A stretch of 19,318 nucleotides of DNA. It comes from a virus (lineage: Duplodnaviria; Heunggongvirae; Uroviricota; Caudoviricetes). A model generated the notes under the pieces. It was not told the origin of the DNA, did no database searches, and saw only the letters and a list, made by a program, of their open reading frames with translations. Where the stretch lies: the IMG/VR virus record IMGVR_UViG_2537561980_000013; one strand, 5' to 3'. Positions 1 through 5,872 of this stretch are shown here, piece after piece (within the stretch, counting starts at the first letter, position 1; every line of letters begins with the position of its first letter). The translations under genes and the position numbers were made by a program.

Positions 1-387
1 CCATTCAGCGCTGCCGCCCCCGGGCGCACTGATTGCTGTTCCATCGACAAGACGCAATCTCTTTCCGCTTGTACAACCCGTAACTGCGGCGCGTACAGCA
101 AGTGTTTGTGCGGCAAGTATGCCAAACCAGTCGGCGGCATTCCGCAGCCGCTTCAGGAGAGCCACGTCAGATAATGTTGCAACGTCATGGAGCTGAGCCC
201 ATGCAGTGACTTCACGTAATGACATCCCCCCGGGGCCGTAAGCCAGCCCCAGACGTAGCAGAGTTGCAGCATCACGAATTTCGCGGCGGCGGGTTAGAGC
301 CCCGGCATTACGTGCCGAAGTATCCAGTTCTTCGGGCTTACCAATATGGGCCAGAATTGCTGACCAGTTATCGTGAGAGTAATTCAT
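1..387 (-). CDS. insL: IS186/IS4-family transposase, N-terminal 129 codons (C-terminus outside window)
   Basis: Manual minus-strand translation from the ATG at 387-385 gives MNYSHDNWSAILAHIGKPEELDTSARNAGALTRRREIRDAATLLRLGLAYGPGG..., matching my recollection of the IS186 transposase N-terminus. Not in the ORF track because the reading frame is open to the window edge. Confidence 0.8.
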   Translation of the reverse strand, partial: MNYSHDNWSAILAHIGKPEELDTSARNAGALTRRREIRDAATLLRLGLAYGPGGMSLREVTAWAQLHDVATLSDVALLKRLRNAADWFGILAAQTLAVRAAVTGCTSGKRLRLVDGTAISAPGGGSAEW

Positions 388-442
388 CGGCACGTTAAAT
401 CATATCAGGCGTAATACCACAACCCTTAAGTTAGCGCTTATG
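1..442 (-). mobile_element. IS186-like (IS4 family) insertion sequence, partial; transposase-start-proximal end
   Basis: Reverse complement of 420-442 is CATAAGCGCTAACTTAAGGGTTG, which I recall as the IS186 terminal inverted repeat. The element runs off the 5' edge of the window. Confidence 0.75.
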
Positions 443-464
443 GGATCTCTCCCCGCCAGGTCTC

Positions 465-620
465 TTACCTTTCAGATTCGTAGGCTGTGAAGACAGTGAC
501 CTCCGTCTGGCCGGTTCGGATTCGTACCTCGCAGAGGTCTTTCCTCGTTACCAGTGCCGTCACAATGACGGTTAAACAGATGACGATCAGAGCGATTAAT
601 ATCGCTTTATGCTGCTTCAT
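465..620 (-). CDS. hok: Hok/Gef-family type I toxin (51 aa, single TM helix)
   Basis: Manual translation gives MKQHKAILIALIVICLTVIVTALVTRKDLCEVRIRTGQTEVTVFTAYESER, a near match to recalled HokD/RelF and HokC/Gef. AAGGAG RBS 8 nt upstream; TAA stop at 467-465. Too short for the ORF track. Confidence 0.85.
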   Translation of the reverse strand: MKQHKAILIALIVICLTVIVTALVTRKDLCEVRIRTGQTEVTVFTAYESER

Positions 621-742
621 AGCCTGCTTCTCCTTGACCTTTTGGTCGGTAAGAGGCTAATCTACGTATGCTAAGCATAGATATGGCCTCAGATTAATGT
701 TAAGCGTCTTGCAGGACGCGTAATGTTATCTGGGGCTTTCTT

Positions 743-777
743 CTATCTGCTTTTCGGGTAATGCCTGAAGCAGATAG
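743..777. promoter_or_regulatory. Perfect 10-bp inverted repeat (CTATCTGCTT / AAGCAGATAG, 15-nt loop) in the presumed hok mRNA leader / sok region
   Basis: Read directly from the sequence. No flanking U-tract on either strand, so probably an RNA structural element or operator rather than a terminator. Confidence 0.3.
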
Positions 778-801
778 CCTCAAGCACCCGCAACGATTGT
801 A

Positions 802-1047
802 TCAATGTCTGGCTTTTTTTCTATAGAAATCACCTGGAAGGGTGAATATCCACATCAGAAGAAATGTTGCAGCAAACATGATCCCTAATGGCCAGACCGC
901 GCCAAAGAAAATCCATACTAAGATCTCCTCTGCTTGTTCTTTGCGGTCGATATCGACAAGCATTTTTCGGCTGATCATGTATACACAGAAGCCAATACAA
1001 ACATATCCTGCAAAAGCGATCGCTAACTGTAAAAAATCAGATTGCAT
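802..1047 (-). CDS. Small inner-membrane protein, two predicted TM helices, charged C-terminus (81 aa from internal ATG; track ORF extends to 1128)
   Basis: ORF track 802..1128. The ATG at 1047 has a GAGG RBS 9 nt upstream and avoids overlap with the upstream gene; the ATG at 1128 has no RBS. Hydrophobic stretches FLQLAIAFAGYVCIGFCVYMI and ILVWIFFGAVWPLGIMFAATFLLMWIFTL. Confidence 0.45.
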   Translation of the reverse strand: MQSDFLQLAIAFAGYVCIGFCVYMISRKMLVDIDRKEQAEEILVWIFFGAVWPLGIMFAATFLLMWIFTLPGDFYRKKARH

Positions 1048-1097
1048 CTCCGACCTCAAACCGAAAACGCCAGGTGACTCCAGATTAGAGCAATCTA

Positions 1098-1367
1098 TCA
1101 CCCTCTGAATCCTGCCGGTATACCCCATTGTTCGTTATCTTTATTTTTGGCTAAAACCGCATTAAGAGCTTCGTTTACCGTCATGCAATGCGGCAGATTA
1201 TCGAAGTTTGATATCCCGCCAATATCAGGAGAACGCTTGTCCTTCAGGTAAGCATATTTCCGCGCTGCCGCCTCTACTTTCTGCTTGAACTCATGTTTTT
1301 GAGCGCGTTTTTTGGATAACCGCAGATTGTCAGCCTTTGCTTTTGCCTCAGCGATCCATGAAGTCAA
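1098..1367 (-). CDS. Hypothetical basic/helical protein (89 aa)
   Basis: ORF track. Start overlaps the stop of the upstream gene by 4 nt (translational coupling). No family recognised. Confidence 0.45.
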   Translation of the reverse strand: MTSWIAEAKAKADNLRLSKKRAQKHEFKQKVEAAARKYAYLKDKRSPDIGGISNFDNLPHCMTVNEALNAVLAKNKDNEQWGIPAGFRG

Positions 1368-1942
1368 TTTTTTGAGTCTGGTCGTTCCGGCACCGCCGGA
1401 AACTGATCTTTTTGTTTTTTAACTTGTGACTTCTTATTCTTTATTGCCACGTCATCCTGACAGGGGGAGGGGGTATCATTTTGACATGGGGGTGTGGATA
1501 AAAAATTAAATAAAGCCAATGTCTTAGCGAGAACAGCTTTAACCTTGGTTGCCGCTGAAGAGATCTTTAATTTGCTTTCAATCAGCGCATTTTTGGCTTG
1601 TTGTGCGAAGGCCAAAAAGGATGGTGTAAACCGGTACAGGTTAGCGCGACGTTCACGGTGATCGCCGATAACAATCTCTACAGACAGGATTCCTTTGTTT
1701 ACAGCTTCACGGAATGCACGAACGACGGTTGATTGGCTATAACCAGTTTCTGCCGCGATCAGGCGGTGAGGCTTGTGAATGAAGTATTCACTGGTTGTTG
1801 CCGCGAGATTTGCACATTGCGACAAGATATGCCCGGCGCTACGGGATAGACCGGAGTGTGTTACAAAGCAGGCCAATTCATAGCCAGAAAAAGTAAAATC
1901 GCTCATCGTTATACAGCTCAGGAAAGTGACTTTAGCCAGCAT
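1364..1942 (-). CDS. Putative winged-HTH DNA-binding protein (regulator or replication-initiator-like); start uncertain (1942 or 1906)
   Basis: ORF track. Segment LIAAETGYSQSTVVRAFREAVNKGIL resembles a helix-turn-helix; C-terminal region is Lys/Ser/Pro-rich. Neither candidate start has a strong RBS. Confidence 0.5.
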   Translation of the reverse strand: MLAKVTFLSCITMSDFTFSGYELACFVTHSGLSRSAGHILSQCANLAATTSEYFIHKPHRLIAAETGYSQSTVVRAFREAVNKGILSVEIVIGDHRERRANLYRFTPSFLAFAQQAKNALIESKLKISSAATKVKAVLAKTLALFNFLSTPPCQNDTPSPCQDDVAIKNKKSQVKKQKDQFPAVPERPDSKN

Positions 1943-1971
1943 TACAATGCTGGTGGTTCTTACTACGTCTG

Positions 1972-2772
1972 TTAGCGCGTCGCCGCGACAGGCACCAGCA
2001 CACCAGCATCAAGCAATCGCTTCATAAGCCACTGCTGACCTTTGCCGGTTATACGAGTCGTGAAAGAAATCCTGCTTCCATTGCTTGTATCGATCACGGT
2101 TTCTTTAAGGGTGAAATACCCACGGGATATGTATTCTTGTTTGGGGACGTTCCTGCGTTCACCGGTTGCGATCAGAATTCCGTTATCACGCAACCAGGTG
2201 AAGAGATAGTTTTGGCCCAGGCCGAGCACTTTGGCATAGTTGCCGATTAGAACCCCGCTGGCGGTAGCAACGCGTTCGGCGAATTCGACTTTAGGTGCAT
2301 CCATAAGCATTTTTTGCTCCAGCCGTTGCTTTTGCTCTGCCAGGTCGGCAGCCAAACGGAGAGCTTCAGGGAGACTCTGCGGAATAGCAGGTTGTAATCT
2401 TCCAGCTCGATAGTCGATAAATGTCTGGTTTACCTTCAGCCGAAACGCGGGAGAAATCCAGCCTGCGTACTCCACAGCGAGCAATTCATGGGCAAAAGTG
2501 CCGCCGCCACGGCCTTCGAACGAAACTATGCAATTCTGCATAGTTTCTTTTTCAAGCTCTTCGATGAGCTGTTTAGCTGACAGCGTTCTTAGCCATTGAG
2601 CTGGCGCTTTATGGGCACCGAGTCCGCTCGCTCTGTGTAGAGCATTAAGGTTGTAACGGCCAGCGCGGTCGGTCGTAATTTCAACACCACAAATAACGGG
2701 CAGAGTGGTTGAAGGATCGACATTTTGATGAAGGTTTGATATATTCATATCCGCATTGAATGTTTGTTGCAT
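1972..2772 (-). CDS. Phage anti-repressor, KilA-N N-terminal domain plus KilAC/ANT C-terminal domain
   Basis: ORF track. N-terminus (YNLNALHRASG...WLRT...AVEYAGWISPAFRLKV) has the KilA-N pattern; C-terminus (LPEALRLAADLAEQK...GNYAKVLGLGQNYLFTWLRDNGIL...GKGQQWLMKRLLDAG) has the ANT pattern. GGAGA RBS upstream. Confidence 0.8.
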   Translation of the reverse strand: MQQTFNADMNISNLHQNVDPSTTLPVICGVEITTDRAGRYNLNALHRASGLGAHKAPAQWLRTLSAKQLIEELEKETMQNCIVSFEGRGGGTFAHELLAVEYAGWISPAFRLKVNQTFIDYRAGRLQPAIPQSLPEALRLAADLAEQKQRLEQKMLMDAPKVEFAERVATASGVLIGNYAKVLGLGQNYLFTWLRDNGILIATGERRNVPKQEYISRGYFTLKETVIDTSNGSRISFTTRITGKGQQWLMKRLLDAGVLVPVAATR

Positions 2773-2830
2773 TTTTTCTCCAAATTTGCATCAACCTTCA
2801 ATCACCAGCTCGAAATGGTGATTCTTTGCA

Positions 2831-2860
2831 CTTAGAAAACGAAATTTATTAGAGCAAATT
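2831..2860. promoter_or_regulatory. Conserved element copy 1 (CTTAGAAAACGAAATTTATTAGAGCAAAT), upstream of the 1972-2772 anti-repressor gene
   Basis: 15-nt core AAATTTATTAGAGCA is identical to 4510-4524, with similar flanks; read directly. Confidence 0.4.
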
Positions 2861-2903
2861 TTTCTGACTCGATCCAGATCGGGTTGGACGATCTGCTCAG
2901 AAA

Positions 2904-2934
2904 CCTGCCAGTTTGCTGGCAGGTTTTTTCTTTT
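2904..2934. terminator. GC hairpin (CCTGCCAG-tttg-CTGGCAGG) followed by TTTTTTCTTTT on the plus strand; possible bidirectional terminator
   Basis: Read directly. The strong T-tract is on the plus strand, while the adjacent stop codon (2936) belongs to a minus-strand gene. Confidence 0.5.
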
Positions 2935-2935
2935 G

Positions 2936-3979
2936 TTAACCTATTGCTACTGGTTTTAACAAACCAGCATCAAGTAGCTTGCGAGTTAACCACTGCTGGC
3001 CTTTACCCGTTAATTGGGGCGTCAGCCGTATCTGGTAGCCATTTTCATCATCCAGCACCACTTCTTTCACCGTGAAATACCCGGCGTTGATGTACTGTTG
3101 GCGCGGTACGTTTTTGCGCGCACCAAAAGCCATGAGAATGCCGTTCTGGCGCAACCATGAGAAAAGGGCGTTTTGCTTAAGTCCAACGACCTTTGCAAAG
3201 TTCCCGATCAGGATTCCATTAGCCGCTGATACCCGGTCGGCAAAATCGACTTTAGGGGCTGCGGCCACCAGCTGTTGTTCCAACTGCATTTTCTGTTCTG
3301 CCAACTCGGCAGCCAGGCGTAGAGCGTCTGGTAATGTTTGGGGGATCGATGGGGCAGGGGAGTTTGCCTGCTGCAATTCTTCCAGTTTGTCGATCAGCGA
3401 ACGGCGGACTGCTTTTGACTCGCGCGCGGCGACTCGCAGGGCTTGTTTGTAGGTCATGGTTATGACAACCATAGGCGTACCGCCACCTGGCGGCACGGTT
3501 GCACTTTTTGTGTAACCGTCCTCACCTTCTAATTCGTCGAGTATTTTTTTGATGAATTTGTTGTTCCGAACCTCTGGTTCCCCACATAACTTACGCGCTT
3601 CATTGACCATCTTTAACAGCGTCTGGCTGTCGATTGTGTCTCCAGTGTTGGAGATAACATTCACAGCTGGTGATGGCGTAGCTGAAGCAACAGATGCTGG
3701 TTTTTTAACATTCAAATTATTACTGGTCATTCTATGTGCCTCCTTTCTCATTTCTGCTGCCACCGTTGCGTAACGTAGACGTCCTTGTTCAATCAAATAA
3801 TCCCTGATCTCGGCTATCAGTAGCCTGTTGATCACAGCCTTATCTGTTCGGGTATAAAAACGTCTGGTTATCATGAAATAGTTGGCAATTGCGCCGGGGA
3901 TCTCCCGTGTCGGCATACAGGCAGTATGCAGGGCGATCGCTTCGGCTATGTCATTACGGGTGACGAGAGGTTTTTTCAT
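2936..3979 (-). CDS. Phage anti-repressor paralog with KilAC/ANT C-terminal domain and a distinct N-terminal region
   Basis: ORF track. C-terminal ~130 aa closely parallel those of the 1972-2772 product (LPDALRLAAELAEQK...GNFAKVVGLKQNALFSWLRQNGIL...GKGQQWLTRKLLDAG). AGGGGG RBS upstream. Confidence 0.75.
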   Translation of the reverse strand: MKKPLVTRNDIAEAIALHTACMPTREIPGAIANYFMITRRFYTRTDKAVINRLLIAEIRDYLIEQGRLRYATVAAEMRKEAHRMTSNNLNVKKPASVASATPSPAVNVISNTGDTIDSQTLLKMVNEARKLCGEPEVRNNKFIKKILDELEGEDGYTKSATVPPGGGTPMVVITMTYKQALRVAARESKAVRRSLIDKLEELQQANSPAPSIPQTLPDALRLAAELAEQKMQLEQQLVAAAPKVDFADRVSAANGILIGNFAKVVGLKQNALFSWLRQNGILMAFGARKNVPRQQYINAGYFTVKEVVLDDENGYQIRLTPQLTGKGQQWLTRKLLDAGLLKPVAIG

Positions 3980-4197
3980 AAAACCCCCTGAACGTCGGCA
4001 GAGAAGGGGAGGTTCCAGTAACTAAGTGAATTGCGCGAGTTAGTTGAAAAACGGGCAGTAAAAATGCAGGGGCCATCAGGCAATTGAGAGCGTGCTTCGT
4101 CTTCTGTTGCTGCGATGACGAAGTGATAGTGGTGTTTTTTGCAGGAATAGAAACGCCAGATGAATTCTTGGCGTGCGCAAGGATTGGCATTAACCAT
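3976..4197 (-). CDS. Small hypothetical protein (73 aa), translationally coupled to the downstream anti-repressor
   Basis: ORF track. GAGG RBS 8-9 nt upstream of the ATG at 4197; stop overlaps the next start by 4 nt. Preferred over the alternative-frame ORF 3954..4190. Confidence 0.5.
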   Translation of the reverse strand: MVNANPCARQEFIWRFYSCKKHHYHFVIAATEDEARSQLPDGPCIFTARFSTNSRNSLSYWNLPFSADVQGVL

Positions 4198-4496
4198 AGT
4201 TACGGCCTCGTAAGTTGATAAACAACCTGCGACCCGCTGCTAAACAGGTGGCAGGACGTGACGGGGTTAGCAGACTGGCACTTACGAAACCAGCAGGCCG
4301 AAGCCTCCCCATCACGCCCCACCATAATTCGGGCGTAACGTGGTTTACGGACACAAAAATACCGCAATATCGGAAATCTGCGGTTGTCCGCGTAAGTATT
4401 CAGGCTGCTAAACCCGGTCGCAGAATTTGCTACGACGGCGAAACTATAAGCCTGAACGATTAAAAGGTCAATATGATGCAAAAAGATAGCATTCGC

Positions 4497-4528
4497 GACT
4501 TAAAAATACAAATTTATTAGAGCAGATT
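4497..4528. promoter_or_regulatory. Conserved element copy 2 (CTTAAAAATACAAATTTATTAGAGCAGAT) at the head of the minus-strand anti-repressor operon
   Basis: Same 15-nt core as 2842-2856. A possible minus-strand -35 (TTGCAC, revcomp of 4535-4540) lies just outside it. Confidence 0.4.
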
Positions 4529-4558
4529 AGTGTCGTGCAATAGATATATTATTTGTGA

Positions 4559-4667
4559 TGAAAAATAATGCAGATGGATATTGTAACTTTAAGATGGATA
4601 TCAATAGTCGATACATAAATTAAGTTAGCAATAAACTATTAACTTAAGAAATAATGCAGATGGTGAA
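4559..4667. repeat. Direct repeats AAATAATGCAGATGG (4563-4577 and 4649-4663) in the AT-rich divergent intergenic region
   Basis: Read directly; TAAGTTAG also occurs twice (4621-4628, 4697-4704). Candidate operator sites. Confidence 0.4.
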
Positions 4668-4807
4668 CTTGTCTCTGACTTTTCAGCTATACACAATAAG
4701 TTAGGGATAGCTTATAAAAAGTTGATTAATTGATATAAGTCAATGGGAGTATTCTTGTTTACTTTCCGTTCTTGTGGTAACTTCTCGCCGGTTTTTGTTT
4801 TTCTGGG

Positions 4808-5329
4808 ATGATTCTTATGTCTAAAAAGTATACTTTATGCGCTCTTGTTGTATCTGCAATTCTTCTTTCTGGGTGTCAATCTAGCGGTGCTGATTATGCT
4901 GCCGATGTTTATGATACCGCTCAATTGAATTCGAAGCAGGAAACAAAGACAGTCAATATTATCTCTGTGCTTCCAGCTAAAGTGAAAGTTGATAATAAAG
5001 CTAATAAAGAAGCGGCACAGACATTTGGTGCGGTACTGGGAGCTGTTGCTGGGGGCGTTGCCGGTTATAATGTTAAAGGCACATCGACACTGGGTGCTGT
5101 AGCTGGCGGTACTGGTGGTGCGGCTCTTGGTGCAGCGGCTGGTTCTTTGGTTAGTGATAAAACAATTGTTGAAGGTGTTTCACTGACTTATAAAGAAGGA
5201 ACTAAGGTGTTCACTTCAACTCAAGTTGGTAAAGCATGCCAGTTTACAACGGGGCTTGCTGTGCTTATTTCAACTAAAGATAATGAAACTCGAATTCAGC
5301 CAAATGCTACTTGTCCAGAAAAGAAATAA
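4808..5329 (+). CDS. SlyB/PCP-like glycine-zipper outer-membrane lipoprotein (start 4808 or 4817)
   Basis: ORF track. Signal peptide with lipobox LLSGC; two glycine-zipper stretches (GAVLGAVAGGVAGY, GAVAGGTGGAALGAAAGS); overall architecture parallels recalled SlyB. AT-rich codon usage. Confidence 0.8.
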   Translation: MILMSKKYTLCALVVSAILLSGCQSSGADYAADVYDTAQLNSKQETKTVNIISVLPAKVKVDNKANKEAAQTFGAVLGAVAGGVAGYNVKGTSTLGAVAGGTGGAALGAAAGSLVSDKTIVEGVSLTYKEGTKVFTSTQVGKACQFTTGLAVLISTKDNETRIQPNATCPEKK

Positions 5330-5332
5330 TTT

Positions 5333-5872
5333 ATGAATAAAATTATTTTATTTCTAATCTTTTCTACGTTTAGTGTAGGCACTGCCTTGGCTAACTCGTT
5401 GCAAAGTCAAATTGCTGCTATTGCTCAAGCGGAAAATGAAGGGCGAGCTAAAGAGCAGCAAGCTGAGGATGCCAGAAAAGAACTTATTCGCCAACAAGCA
5501 CAAGCTGAACGTATTAGAAGAGAAAAAGCAGCATCTGCCGCTGCTGCACGCGAAAAACAGCGTGTTGCTGCAGAAAATGAACGTAGAGCGAAACGAGAAG
5601 CCGAGCTAGCAAATGACAAGAAGCGAGATCAAGCTTATGAGGATGAGCTTCGCAAGCTGCAACTCGAAAGCATGAAACTCGAACTGCAAGCAAAAGCGGC
5701 TCGTGTCCAGCGAGAAAACGATTTTATAGAGCAGGAGTTGAAGGAGAGAGCAGCTAAGACAGATGTAATTCAGTCTGAGGCTGATGCAAATAGAAATATT
5801 TCTACAGGAAGTAAAGATTTACTGCAAAGCGAAGGAAAAGCTAGAGAGAAGAAAGCTAGCAGTTGGTGGTAG
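5333..5872 (+). CDS. Secreted (signal-peptide) Ala/Glu/Arg/Lys-rich coiled-coil protein
   Basis: ORF track. N-terminal signal peptide (…FSVGTALA|NS), then ~150 aa of charged heptad-like sequence. Starts 3 nt after the lipoprotein stop (operon). Confidence 0.7.
   Translation: MNKIILFLIFSTFSVGTALANSLQSQIAAIAQAENEGRAKEQQAEDARKELIRQQAQAERIRREKAASAAAAREKQRVAAENERRAKREAELANDKKRDQAYEDELRKLQLESMKLELQAKAARVQRENDFIEQELKERAAKTDVIQSEADANRNISTGSKDLLQSEGKAREKKASSWW

Follow-up and report, generated by a model that had tools for sequence, protein, structure and literature searches.

The window, a stretch of 19,318 nt, opens inside a copy of the insertion sequence IS186, the end of which lies 22 bp behind the stop codon of an intact hok toxin gene. 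The same spacing was reportedly described for E. coli K-12 by Pedersen & Gerdes in 1999 (Mol Microbiol 32:1090), who are said to have found IS186 22 bp after hokC and hokE. The question is how this arrangement arose in the DNA studied here and what it means for the toxin gene. The favoured explanation, which is considered probable, is that IS186 inserted into a GGGG-N6-CCCC hairpin and thereby parted the hok mRNA from its 3' elements, in an event that was both independent and recurrent. The arrangement has been known since 1999 for K-12; the plasmid cases are a further independent instance of it, with no new mechanism.

The IS186 copy and its distance from hok

Positions 1-442 of the window, on the minus strand, correspond to nucleotides 1-442 of the 1339-bp element, which is cut by the window edge. 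Their reverse complement is 100% identical (0 mismatches) to the first 442 nt of K-12 IS186A. IS186 is classed in the IS4 family and carries the label 'IS421 family' in RefSeq. The N-terminal 129 residues of the InsL transposase are encoded at 1-387 (minus strand, from the translation; start codon 385-387), and the coding sequence leaves the window leftwards, co-directional with hok. The 23-bp terminal inverted repeat, CATAAGCGCTAACTTAAGGGTTG on the minus strand, occupies positions 420-442, where it is exact, as it is in K-12 and the sister plasmids; one such repeat lies in the window, and both are seen in the sister plasmids and in K-12. As for the length of about 1.34 kb and the InsL gene that characterize IS186, the window holds 442 nt, and the complete element of 1339 bp is present in the sister plasmids L002, L005, L006, L008 and L009. 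As the window opens inside the IS, the distal junction and the second copy of the target duplication were read in near-identical plasmids.

The hok ORF (465-620, minus strand, from the ORF list) encodes an intact toxin of the HokD type with 51 aa and ends with the stop codon TAA at 465-467. Direct reading gives a spacer of 22 bp (443-464, minus strand) between the end of the IS and this stop codon. The original prediction, made from the sequence alone, had placed the IS terminus at 442, the hok stop at 467-465 and a gap of 22 bp between them, and all three values hold; the boundary of the IS is ambiguous by 1 nt because its last G could equally well belong to a duplication of 11 bp. The idea that hok belongs to a composite transposon, a structure reported for hokE (PMC13463583), was considered and rejected: no second IS186 repeat is present in the 19.3-kb window, and the sister plasmids contain one IS with its own duplication.

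Source replicon

The neighbours of hok are P1 genes, namely c4 RNA, icd/ant, kilA and repL, followed by morphogenesis genes. The c4 antisense RNA (4244-4329, minus strand, 70.8 bits) and its a1/b1 target (4397-4449, minus strand, 55.3 bits) are located upstream of icd/ant. Because these elements of the P1 immunity-I region are present, the source replicon is identified, as judged from the sequence, as a P1-like phage-plasmid of E. coli. In P1 itself rlfAB presumably stands beside repL, at the position where the hok/sok module sits here. A comparative study of P1-like phage-plasmids describes rlfAB as a variable region and makes no mention of hok or IS186 there (PMC9603915).

The hok gene, mok, Sok and promoters

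The Hok protein is identical to K-12 HokD at 46/51 positions, to HokC at 41/51 and to HokE at 18/51, in agreement with the earlier assignment closer to HokD/RelF than to HokC or HokE. The protein agrees with the Hok type, a peptide of about 50 aa that has a transmembrane helix at the N-terminus and a conserved C-terminal portion. The match to the NCBIfam Hok subfamily has an E-value of 1.5e-13 and a score of 50.3 bits, below the curated cut-off of 73 bits. In RefSeq the protein of L002 (50/51 identical) is named HokD, and that of the identical-flank plasmid L001 is named Hok/Gef family protein.

The hok mRNA leader with the Sok target is located at 615-789 (minus strand) and was aligned to K-12 hokC and hokE. 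It matches the full-length Rfam model RF01794 'sok' with 114.9 bits against a gathering score of 59. The 5' end of the mRNA within this leader (tac, 778-789, minus strand) reads GGGUGCUUGAGG. Relative to K-12 hokC the leader/Sok region contains an additional 18 nt at 704-721 (minus strand), ACGCGUCCUGCAAGACGC, which form a small hairpin and are aligned by Rfam as a loop insertion. The hok promoter (796-823, minus strand) consists of a -35 box TAGAAA, a 16-nt spacer and the extended -10 box TG-TACAAT, and it aligns with the TATAAT upstream of K-12 hokC. The antisense RNA Sok probably lies at about 670-746 on the plus strand, as projected from the annotated K-12 sokC via the alignment. A putative Sok promoter on the plus strand, recognized by eye and below the scan threshold, has a -35 box TTGACC at 634-639 and a -10 box TAATCT at 658-663.

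The mok frame (607-678, minus strand; start at 678, TAA at 607-609) comprises 23 codons here versus 68 codons in most sister plasmids. It is shortened because the exchange Q4H in Hok (CAA to CAT) creates a TAA in the mok frame. The short mok and the Q4H SNP are rare and are common to the window and NZ_CP122822. The truncation may represent decay after the insertion of the IS or may be neutral, and it could on its own alter the translation of hok.

Target site and duplication

The hok-proximal copy of a 10-bp target-site duplication, GGATCTCTCC, is located at 443-452 and matches the distal flank of the IS in the sister plasmids; this copy alone falls in the window. Matching duplication copies surround the IS in 9 sister plasmids (L001, L002, L005-L009, L012 and L013). 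The sequence GGATCTCTCC itself is found at the other IS end too in L001, L002, L005, L007-L009, L012 and L013, and in NZ_CP196313 (L002) it stands on both sides of a 1339-bp IS. IS186 makes repeats of 10-11 bp, and a 10-bp duplication is typical (PMC13463583).

The unoccupied site in related plasmids reads GGCGGGGATCTCTCCCCGCC, and in IS-free plasmids the two flanks join via one copy of the 10-mer to give GTGGCGGGGATCTCTCCCCGCCAGG. The empty site of L014 has GGATCTCTCC once, as does that of L015, the sole difference of which lies just outside. The corresponding 10 bp of L016 differ by one substitution (AGATCTCTCC). The empty site is a perfect hairpin with an 8-bp stem (GGCGGGGA/TCCCCGCC) and a 4-nt loop, just 3' of hok. 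The spacer at 443-464 represents the hok-proximal half of this GC hairpin after it was split, reading GGCGGGGAGAGAUCC... in the mRNA sense; the sequence before insertion was GGCGGGGAGAGAUCCCCGCC.

With its segment GGGGATCTCTCCCC, the empty site has the G run (G>=4), the interval (N3-6) and the C run (C>=4) by which an IS186 target is recognized. The target consensus of IS186 was reportedly given as GGGG-N6-CCCC by saiSree et al. in 2001, and the hairpin after hok fits this rule. A scan of the 19.3-kb window for GGGG-N4-8-CCCC found no motif remaining, and the restored site is the only one in the region. Because the restored site is unique in the region and the junction is shared by 16 genomes and 13 plasmids, the position of the insertion is not attributed to chance.

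Two variants of the empty target were observed. The stem is weakened in L015 (about 2890-2910, GGGGATCTCTCCCCACC), and the run of four G is broken in L016 (about 2500-2520, GGCGGAGATCTCTCCCC). The latter should be a poorer target for IS186 and would provide a natural control. Natural versions of the 20-bp hairpin include GGAG in NZ_AP040221, CCCCACC in the HCP5S3_I2 plasmid and the form in hokD of Qin.

Occupancy of the site in P1-like plasmids

Among 5,426 complete E. coli genomes the site is unoccupied in 202, occupied in the orientation of the window (orientation A) in 16 and in the opposite orientation (orientation B) in 45. The corresponding numbers for the plasmids in PLSDB are 217, 13 and at least 56, the orientation-B hosts including Salmonella, E. 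fergusonii and Cronobacter. About a quarter of the sites are thus occupied (61/263 in the E. coli genomes, at least 69/286 in PLSDB), counted as raw records with related plasmids included. In a phage collection, 6 of 6 P1-like phage records spanning the site are unoccupied. For the census, sites were scored by BLAST coverage thresholds; 15 loci (the window and 14 others) had their junctions inspected at the level of single bases. The orientation-B count of 45 in E. coli was obtained with a plasmid-specific query; a broader query yields 395 genomes, including those with chromosomal hokC::IS186.

In the junctions read base by base the duplication GGATCTCTCC is common to both orientations of the IS, and the same hok-flank haplotypes were found with an empty site and with the IS in either orientation. 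L006 has a different left flank and the variant duplication GGATCACTCC; because this variant stands on both sides of the IS, the plasmid is regarded as the product of a separate insertion event. In L010 and L011 (NZ_CP020936 and NZ_CP158185) the left duplication is GGATCACTCC and the right one GGATCTCTCC, and the left flank contains a MazG-like gene. Their mismatched duplications indicate recombination through IS186 between two occupied plasmids. As about a quarter of the sites carry the IS, which is found in either orientation and with two or more duplication variants, the site is considered a recurrent hot spot. Target specificity of IS186 for the hairpin following hok ORFs is taken as the cause of the arrangement; the original prediction named neither this cause nor the recurrent hits in both orientations.

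Loss of the 3' mRNA elements and predicted consequence

In unoccupied sister loci fbi (CCUCAAUGCACCC) and a terminator are located 3' of the insertion point. Neither is present downstream of hok in the window, and in relatives they are found on the far side of the IS; with respect to these elements the locus is a disrupted member of the hok/sok group. Since both elements lie beyond the insertion point, both are severed from hok. The distance of fbi into the IS-distal flank is 35-41 nt at hokC, hokE and the P1-like locus.

A restored hok mRNA of 426 nt was assembled from the two flanks and folded. In this fold the first 12 nt, GGGUGCUUGAGG, are paired to CCUCAAUGCACCC about 50 nt after the stop codon; the minimum free energy is -168 kcal/mol (z = -8.4 versus shuffled sequences), and the GC hairpin and a terminal terminator hairpin are included. 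The energies of the 5'-3' duplex are -18.3 kcal/mol for hokC, -15.2 kcal/mol for hokE and -21.0 kcal/mol for the plasmid locus, with a compensatory change in hokE. When the interrupted transcript, which extends into the IS, was folded, the pairing of the ends was lost and the 5' end formed a local hairpin. In hok of plasmid R1 the local 5' hairpin is the conformation of the processed, Sok-accessible mRNA. The terminal repeat of IS186 (…AAGCGC…) was considered as a stand-in for fbi and rejected, as it did not pair with the 5' end in the folds of the interrupted transcript. The proposal that the insertion removes 3' mRNA elements is thus sustained: the insertion point precedes both fbi and the terminator, end-pairing is lost in the fold, and on the intact loci the 3' element is not situated wholly upstream of position 443.

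According to the proposed mechanism, IS186 would have transposed into its preferred motif GGGG-N6-CCCC, represented by the GC-rich hairpin 12-21 nt past the hok stop codon. Insertion at GGCGGGGATCTCTCCCCGCC would have given rise to the two copies of GGATCTCTCC and to the distance of 22 bp between stop codon and IS end. The toxin ORF with its promoter is untouched, as are the Sok gene and the Sok target, and the other half of the hairpin, fbi and the terminator are now predicted to lie 1.35 kb away. Transcripts of hok would run into IS186 and, in the orientation of the window, into the sense strand of the transposase. The interrupted mRNA would be unable to adopt the inert, long-lived full-length state that is closed between its 5' and 3' ends; it would fold straight into the open form, bind Sok and be degraded. 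No stable reservoir of toxin mRNA would then outlast Sok, and neither plasmid-free segregants nor cells under transcription arrest would be killed. The disarmed locus would still be transcribed and regulated by Sok, with the toxin gene intact.

Loss of the killing function at this locus is accordingly a prediction from the folds and from comparison with K-12. At K-12 gef/hokC the adjacent IS186 is thought to disrupt fbi and mRNA processing, and the gene is still transcribed and regulated by the antisense RNA (PMC3562002). The term 'inactivated' is an extrapolation from K-12, because removal of fbi could also give more, not less, translatable mRNA.

Origin of the junction and alternative explanations

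Transposition of IS186 into the plasmid locus, separate from the events at hokC and hokE and with no import from the chromosome, is supported by the sequence of the junction. The event is regarded as independent because both the duplication and the spacer are locus-specific (GGATCTCTCC versus GGATCACTCC at hokC and GGAGTAATCC at hokE). Of the two origins originally suggested, independent or recombined, the former therefore stands with the locus-specific duplication, the spacer and both flanks, and the latter does not. Near-identical IS186 copies are possible substrates for recombination, and the hybrid duplications of L010 and L011 demonstrate recombination through the IS between plasmids. That the junction was acquired from the chromosome, through gene conversion or recombination with a hok::IS186 locus of the hokC/hokE type, is nevertheless very improbable: the spacer of 22 bp, the duplication and the flanks on either side are specific to the plasmids, hokC and hokE differ in duplication and spacer, the duplication matches on both sides in the sister plasmids, and the two flanks add up exactly to the empty site. 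An assembly mis-join through repeated IS ends is an equally far-fetched source of the junction or its orientation. IS186 is a multi-copy element, the ends of which share 23-26 bp and could be confused with short k-mers, and the nearest relative has the opposite orientation. Yet unrelated projects yielded the same junction in the same orientation, in 16 complete genomes and in 13 plasmids of PLSDB; moreover, the sequence inward of the repeat is specific to one orientation of the IS, and it joins the flank without a break over 442 nt.

That nearest relative leads to a question about the history of the present copy, which concerns neither its structure nor its function. The flank of the window (443-5400) is 99.94% identical to NZ_CP122822 (L001, 4024-8981), with 2 mismatches and 1 indel. 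In this plasmid the site and the duplication are the same but IS186 points the opposite way, and plasmids sharing the orientation of the window are only 98.2-99.6% identical to the window flank. It is conceivable, though doubtful, that the copy in the window descends from an opposite-orientation IS that was flipped in place, the 23-bp inverted repeats having recombined or the element having been excised and inserted again into the restored hot spot. The rare mok-truncating SNP common to the window and NZ_CP122822 speaks in favour of such a flip, as does the lack of an unoccupied plasmid of the exact window haplotype among the best matches, and IS186 is documented to leave a hot spot by precise excision (PMC3861542). 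However, at lon a single site is documented to be hit independently in either orientation (PMC3045373), empty relatives may exist outside the sampled set, and the IS copies are near-identical, leaving no lineage signal in the 442 nt available. The use of IS variants as a lineage tracer was tried and found uninformative, with copies differing at only 2 positions across the plasmids and K-12; the IS of NZ_CP122822 has a 1-nt deletion at IS nucleotide 1132, a position outside the window. Unlikely, too, is that the high occupancy reflects positive selection for disarming hok in the phage-plasmid, beyond target preference, for example by avoiding self-killing when lytic growth shuts off host transcription. 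The occupancy (61/263 and at least 69/286), the recurrence of the insertions and the second degenerative change in an occupied haplotype, the mok stop, are in line with selection, but clonally related records are included in the counts, high frequencies are reached at IS186 hot spots even when the function of the target is not under selection, and the unoccupied state of all six P1-like phage records gives no support to a benefit in lytic growth. A link between IS186 and hok that goes deeper than a shared motif, be it landing pads with read-through, selected disarming or a flip in situ, is quite improbable. If landing pads were real, the 3' hairpins of hok genes would be favoured by IS186 across chromosomes, prophages and phage-plasmids; in the co-directional orientation of the window, read-through from the Sok-controlled hok promoter would then transcribe the transposase, and transposition would be tied to conditions that relieve Sok control.

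Comparison with other hok loci and IS186 hot spots

The favoured explanation, insertion of IS186 into the hairpin behind hok, was compared with the situation in K-12, where the geometry was measured on NC_000913.3 with the same definition of the terminal repeat as in the window. At hokC the end of IS186A is 22 bp from the stop codon, with the duplication GGATCACTCC; at hokE the end of IS186B is 21 bp from the stop, with the duplication GGAGTAATCC. The reported K-12 spacing was thereby recovered from the K-12 genome, as 22 bp at hokC and 21 bp at hokE. The plasmid locus resembles both in having an intact hok ORF followed after 21-22 bp by an IS186 end inside a GGGG-N6-CCCC hairpin, a 10-bp duplication, and fbi and the terminator moved to the far side of the IS. 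It has the features of an IS186-interrupted hok, with the IS end about 22 bp 3' of the intact ORF, the hairpin split and fbi displaced. In the window the transposase and hok run in the same direction, as at hokE and opposite to hokC. The plasmid locus differs from the K-12 loci in that the paralogue is of the HokD type with its own duplication, that it is located beside repL on a P1-like phage-plasmid, and that the site is polymorphic, being empty or occupied either way. Inactivation of K-12 hok loci by insertion elements is mentioned in passages of PMC2654758 and PMC7232551 that cite Pedersen & Gerdes 1999.

The target is a GGGG-N6-CCCC hairpin at the loci with both flanks available (hokC, hokE and P1-like); hokX keeps the hok-proximal half only. 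The unoccupied K-12 hokD reads GGGGGAGAAATCCCTC, with a C-run of only 3 and without G4/C4 runs. The hok gene of R1 is likewise without G4/C4 runs, its hairpin having only G3/C3 runs, and this hairpin is not known to be a target of IS186. Hok, the overlapping mok, the antisense Sok, the 5' tac, the 3' fbi and the GC hairpin after the ORF are parts common to hok/sok of R1 and this system; the difference is that the locus studied here is without its 3' end.

Insertion of IS186 at hokX in the cysH-iap/CRISPR-I region was described for E. coli B and others (PMC3903273, PMC7232551). In strain WG5 (NZ_CP024090, L018, 763-2125) the hokX gene beside the CRISPR-I array is followed by IS186 21 bp after the stop codon. 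At its other end the IS adjoins a CRISPR repeat. The flanks form no matching duplication, consistent with a deletion of the cas genes by IS186-mediated recombination, a loss that is on record for the hokX region (PMC3903273). The two loci share the 21-22 bp spacing and the GC-rich motif, whereas hokX is chromosomal and its duplication is missing. At the lon promoter IS186 inserts at a single site in either orientation (PMC3045373) and leaves this site by precise excision (PMC3861542). The lon site resembles the hok site as a nucleotide-precise hot spot of a G-run and a C-run, with recurrent independent insertions in either orientation. It differs in that a promoter is disrupted there, with a selectable phenotype, whereas here an mRNA is parted from its 3' regulatory elements.

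With these parallels, IS186 22 bp after hok in K-12 would be neither an accident of a laboratory strain nor a coincidence, and the geometry would be the predictable result of target choice meeting a conserved RNA hairpin. The locus may be useful as a clear illustration, provided by nature, of a regulatory RNA hairpin that contains an IS hot spot. Dozens of public plasmid sequences contain an IS-interrupted hok gene on which no comment was made, and the latest large survey of hok makes no mention of hok::IS186 interruption (bioRxiv 10.1101/2025.08.07.668861). In annotation, an intact 'HokD' ORF on a plasmid of this kind should not be taken for a working addiction module; to surveys of hok diversity, the interruption would offer a common and easily scored form of inactivation.

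Other features of the neighbourhood

The frame of repL, the lytic replication gene (1098-1943, minus strand), is broken into two ORFs, 1364-1942 and 1098-1367, by an indel at about 1414, owing to a T-run that is 1 nt shorter than in L001, L002 and L014. The split is either a true frameshift or a homopolymer sequencing error. An ORF of 108 aa with hydrophobic stretches is located between hok and repL (802-1128, minus strand); in NCBIfam no family was found for four neighbouring proteins, and this ORF was likewise unmatched. In some orientation-A plasmids (L008 and L009) a deletion of about 143 bp truncates the copy of this ORF. The truncated copy is named 'membrane domain protein' in RefSeq, and one record that contains it, NCTC11129, was deposited as part of the chromosome.
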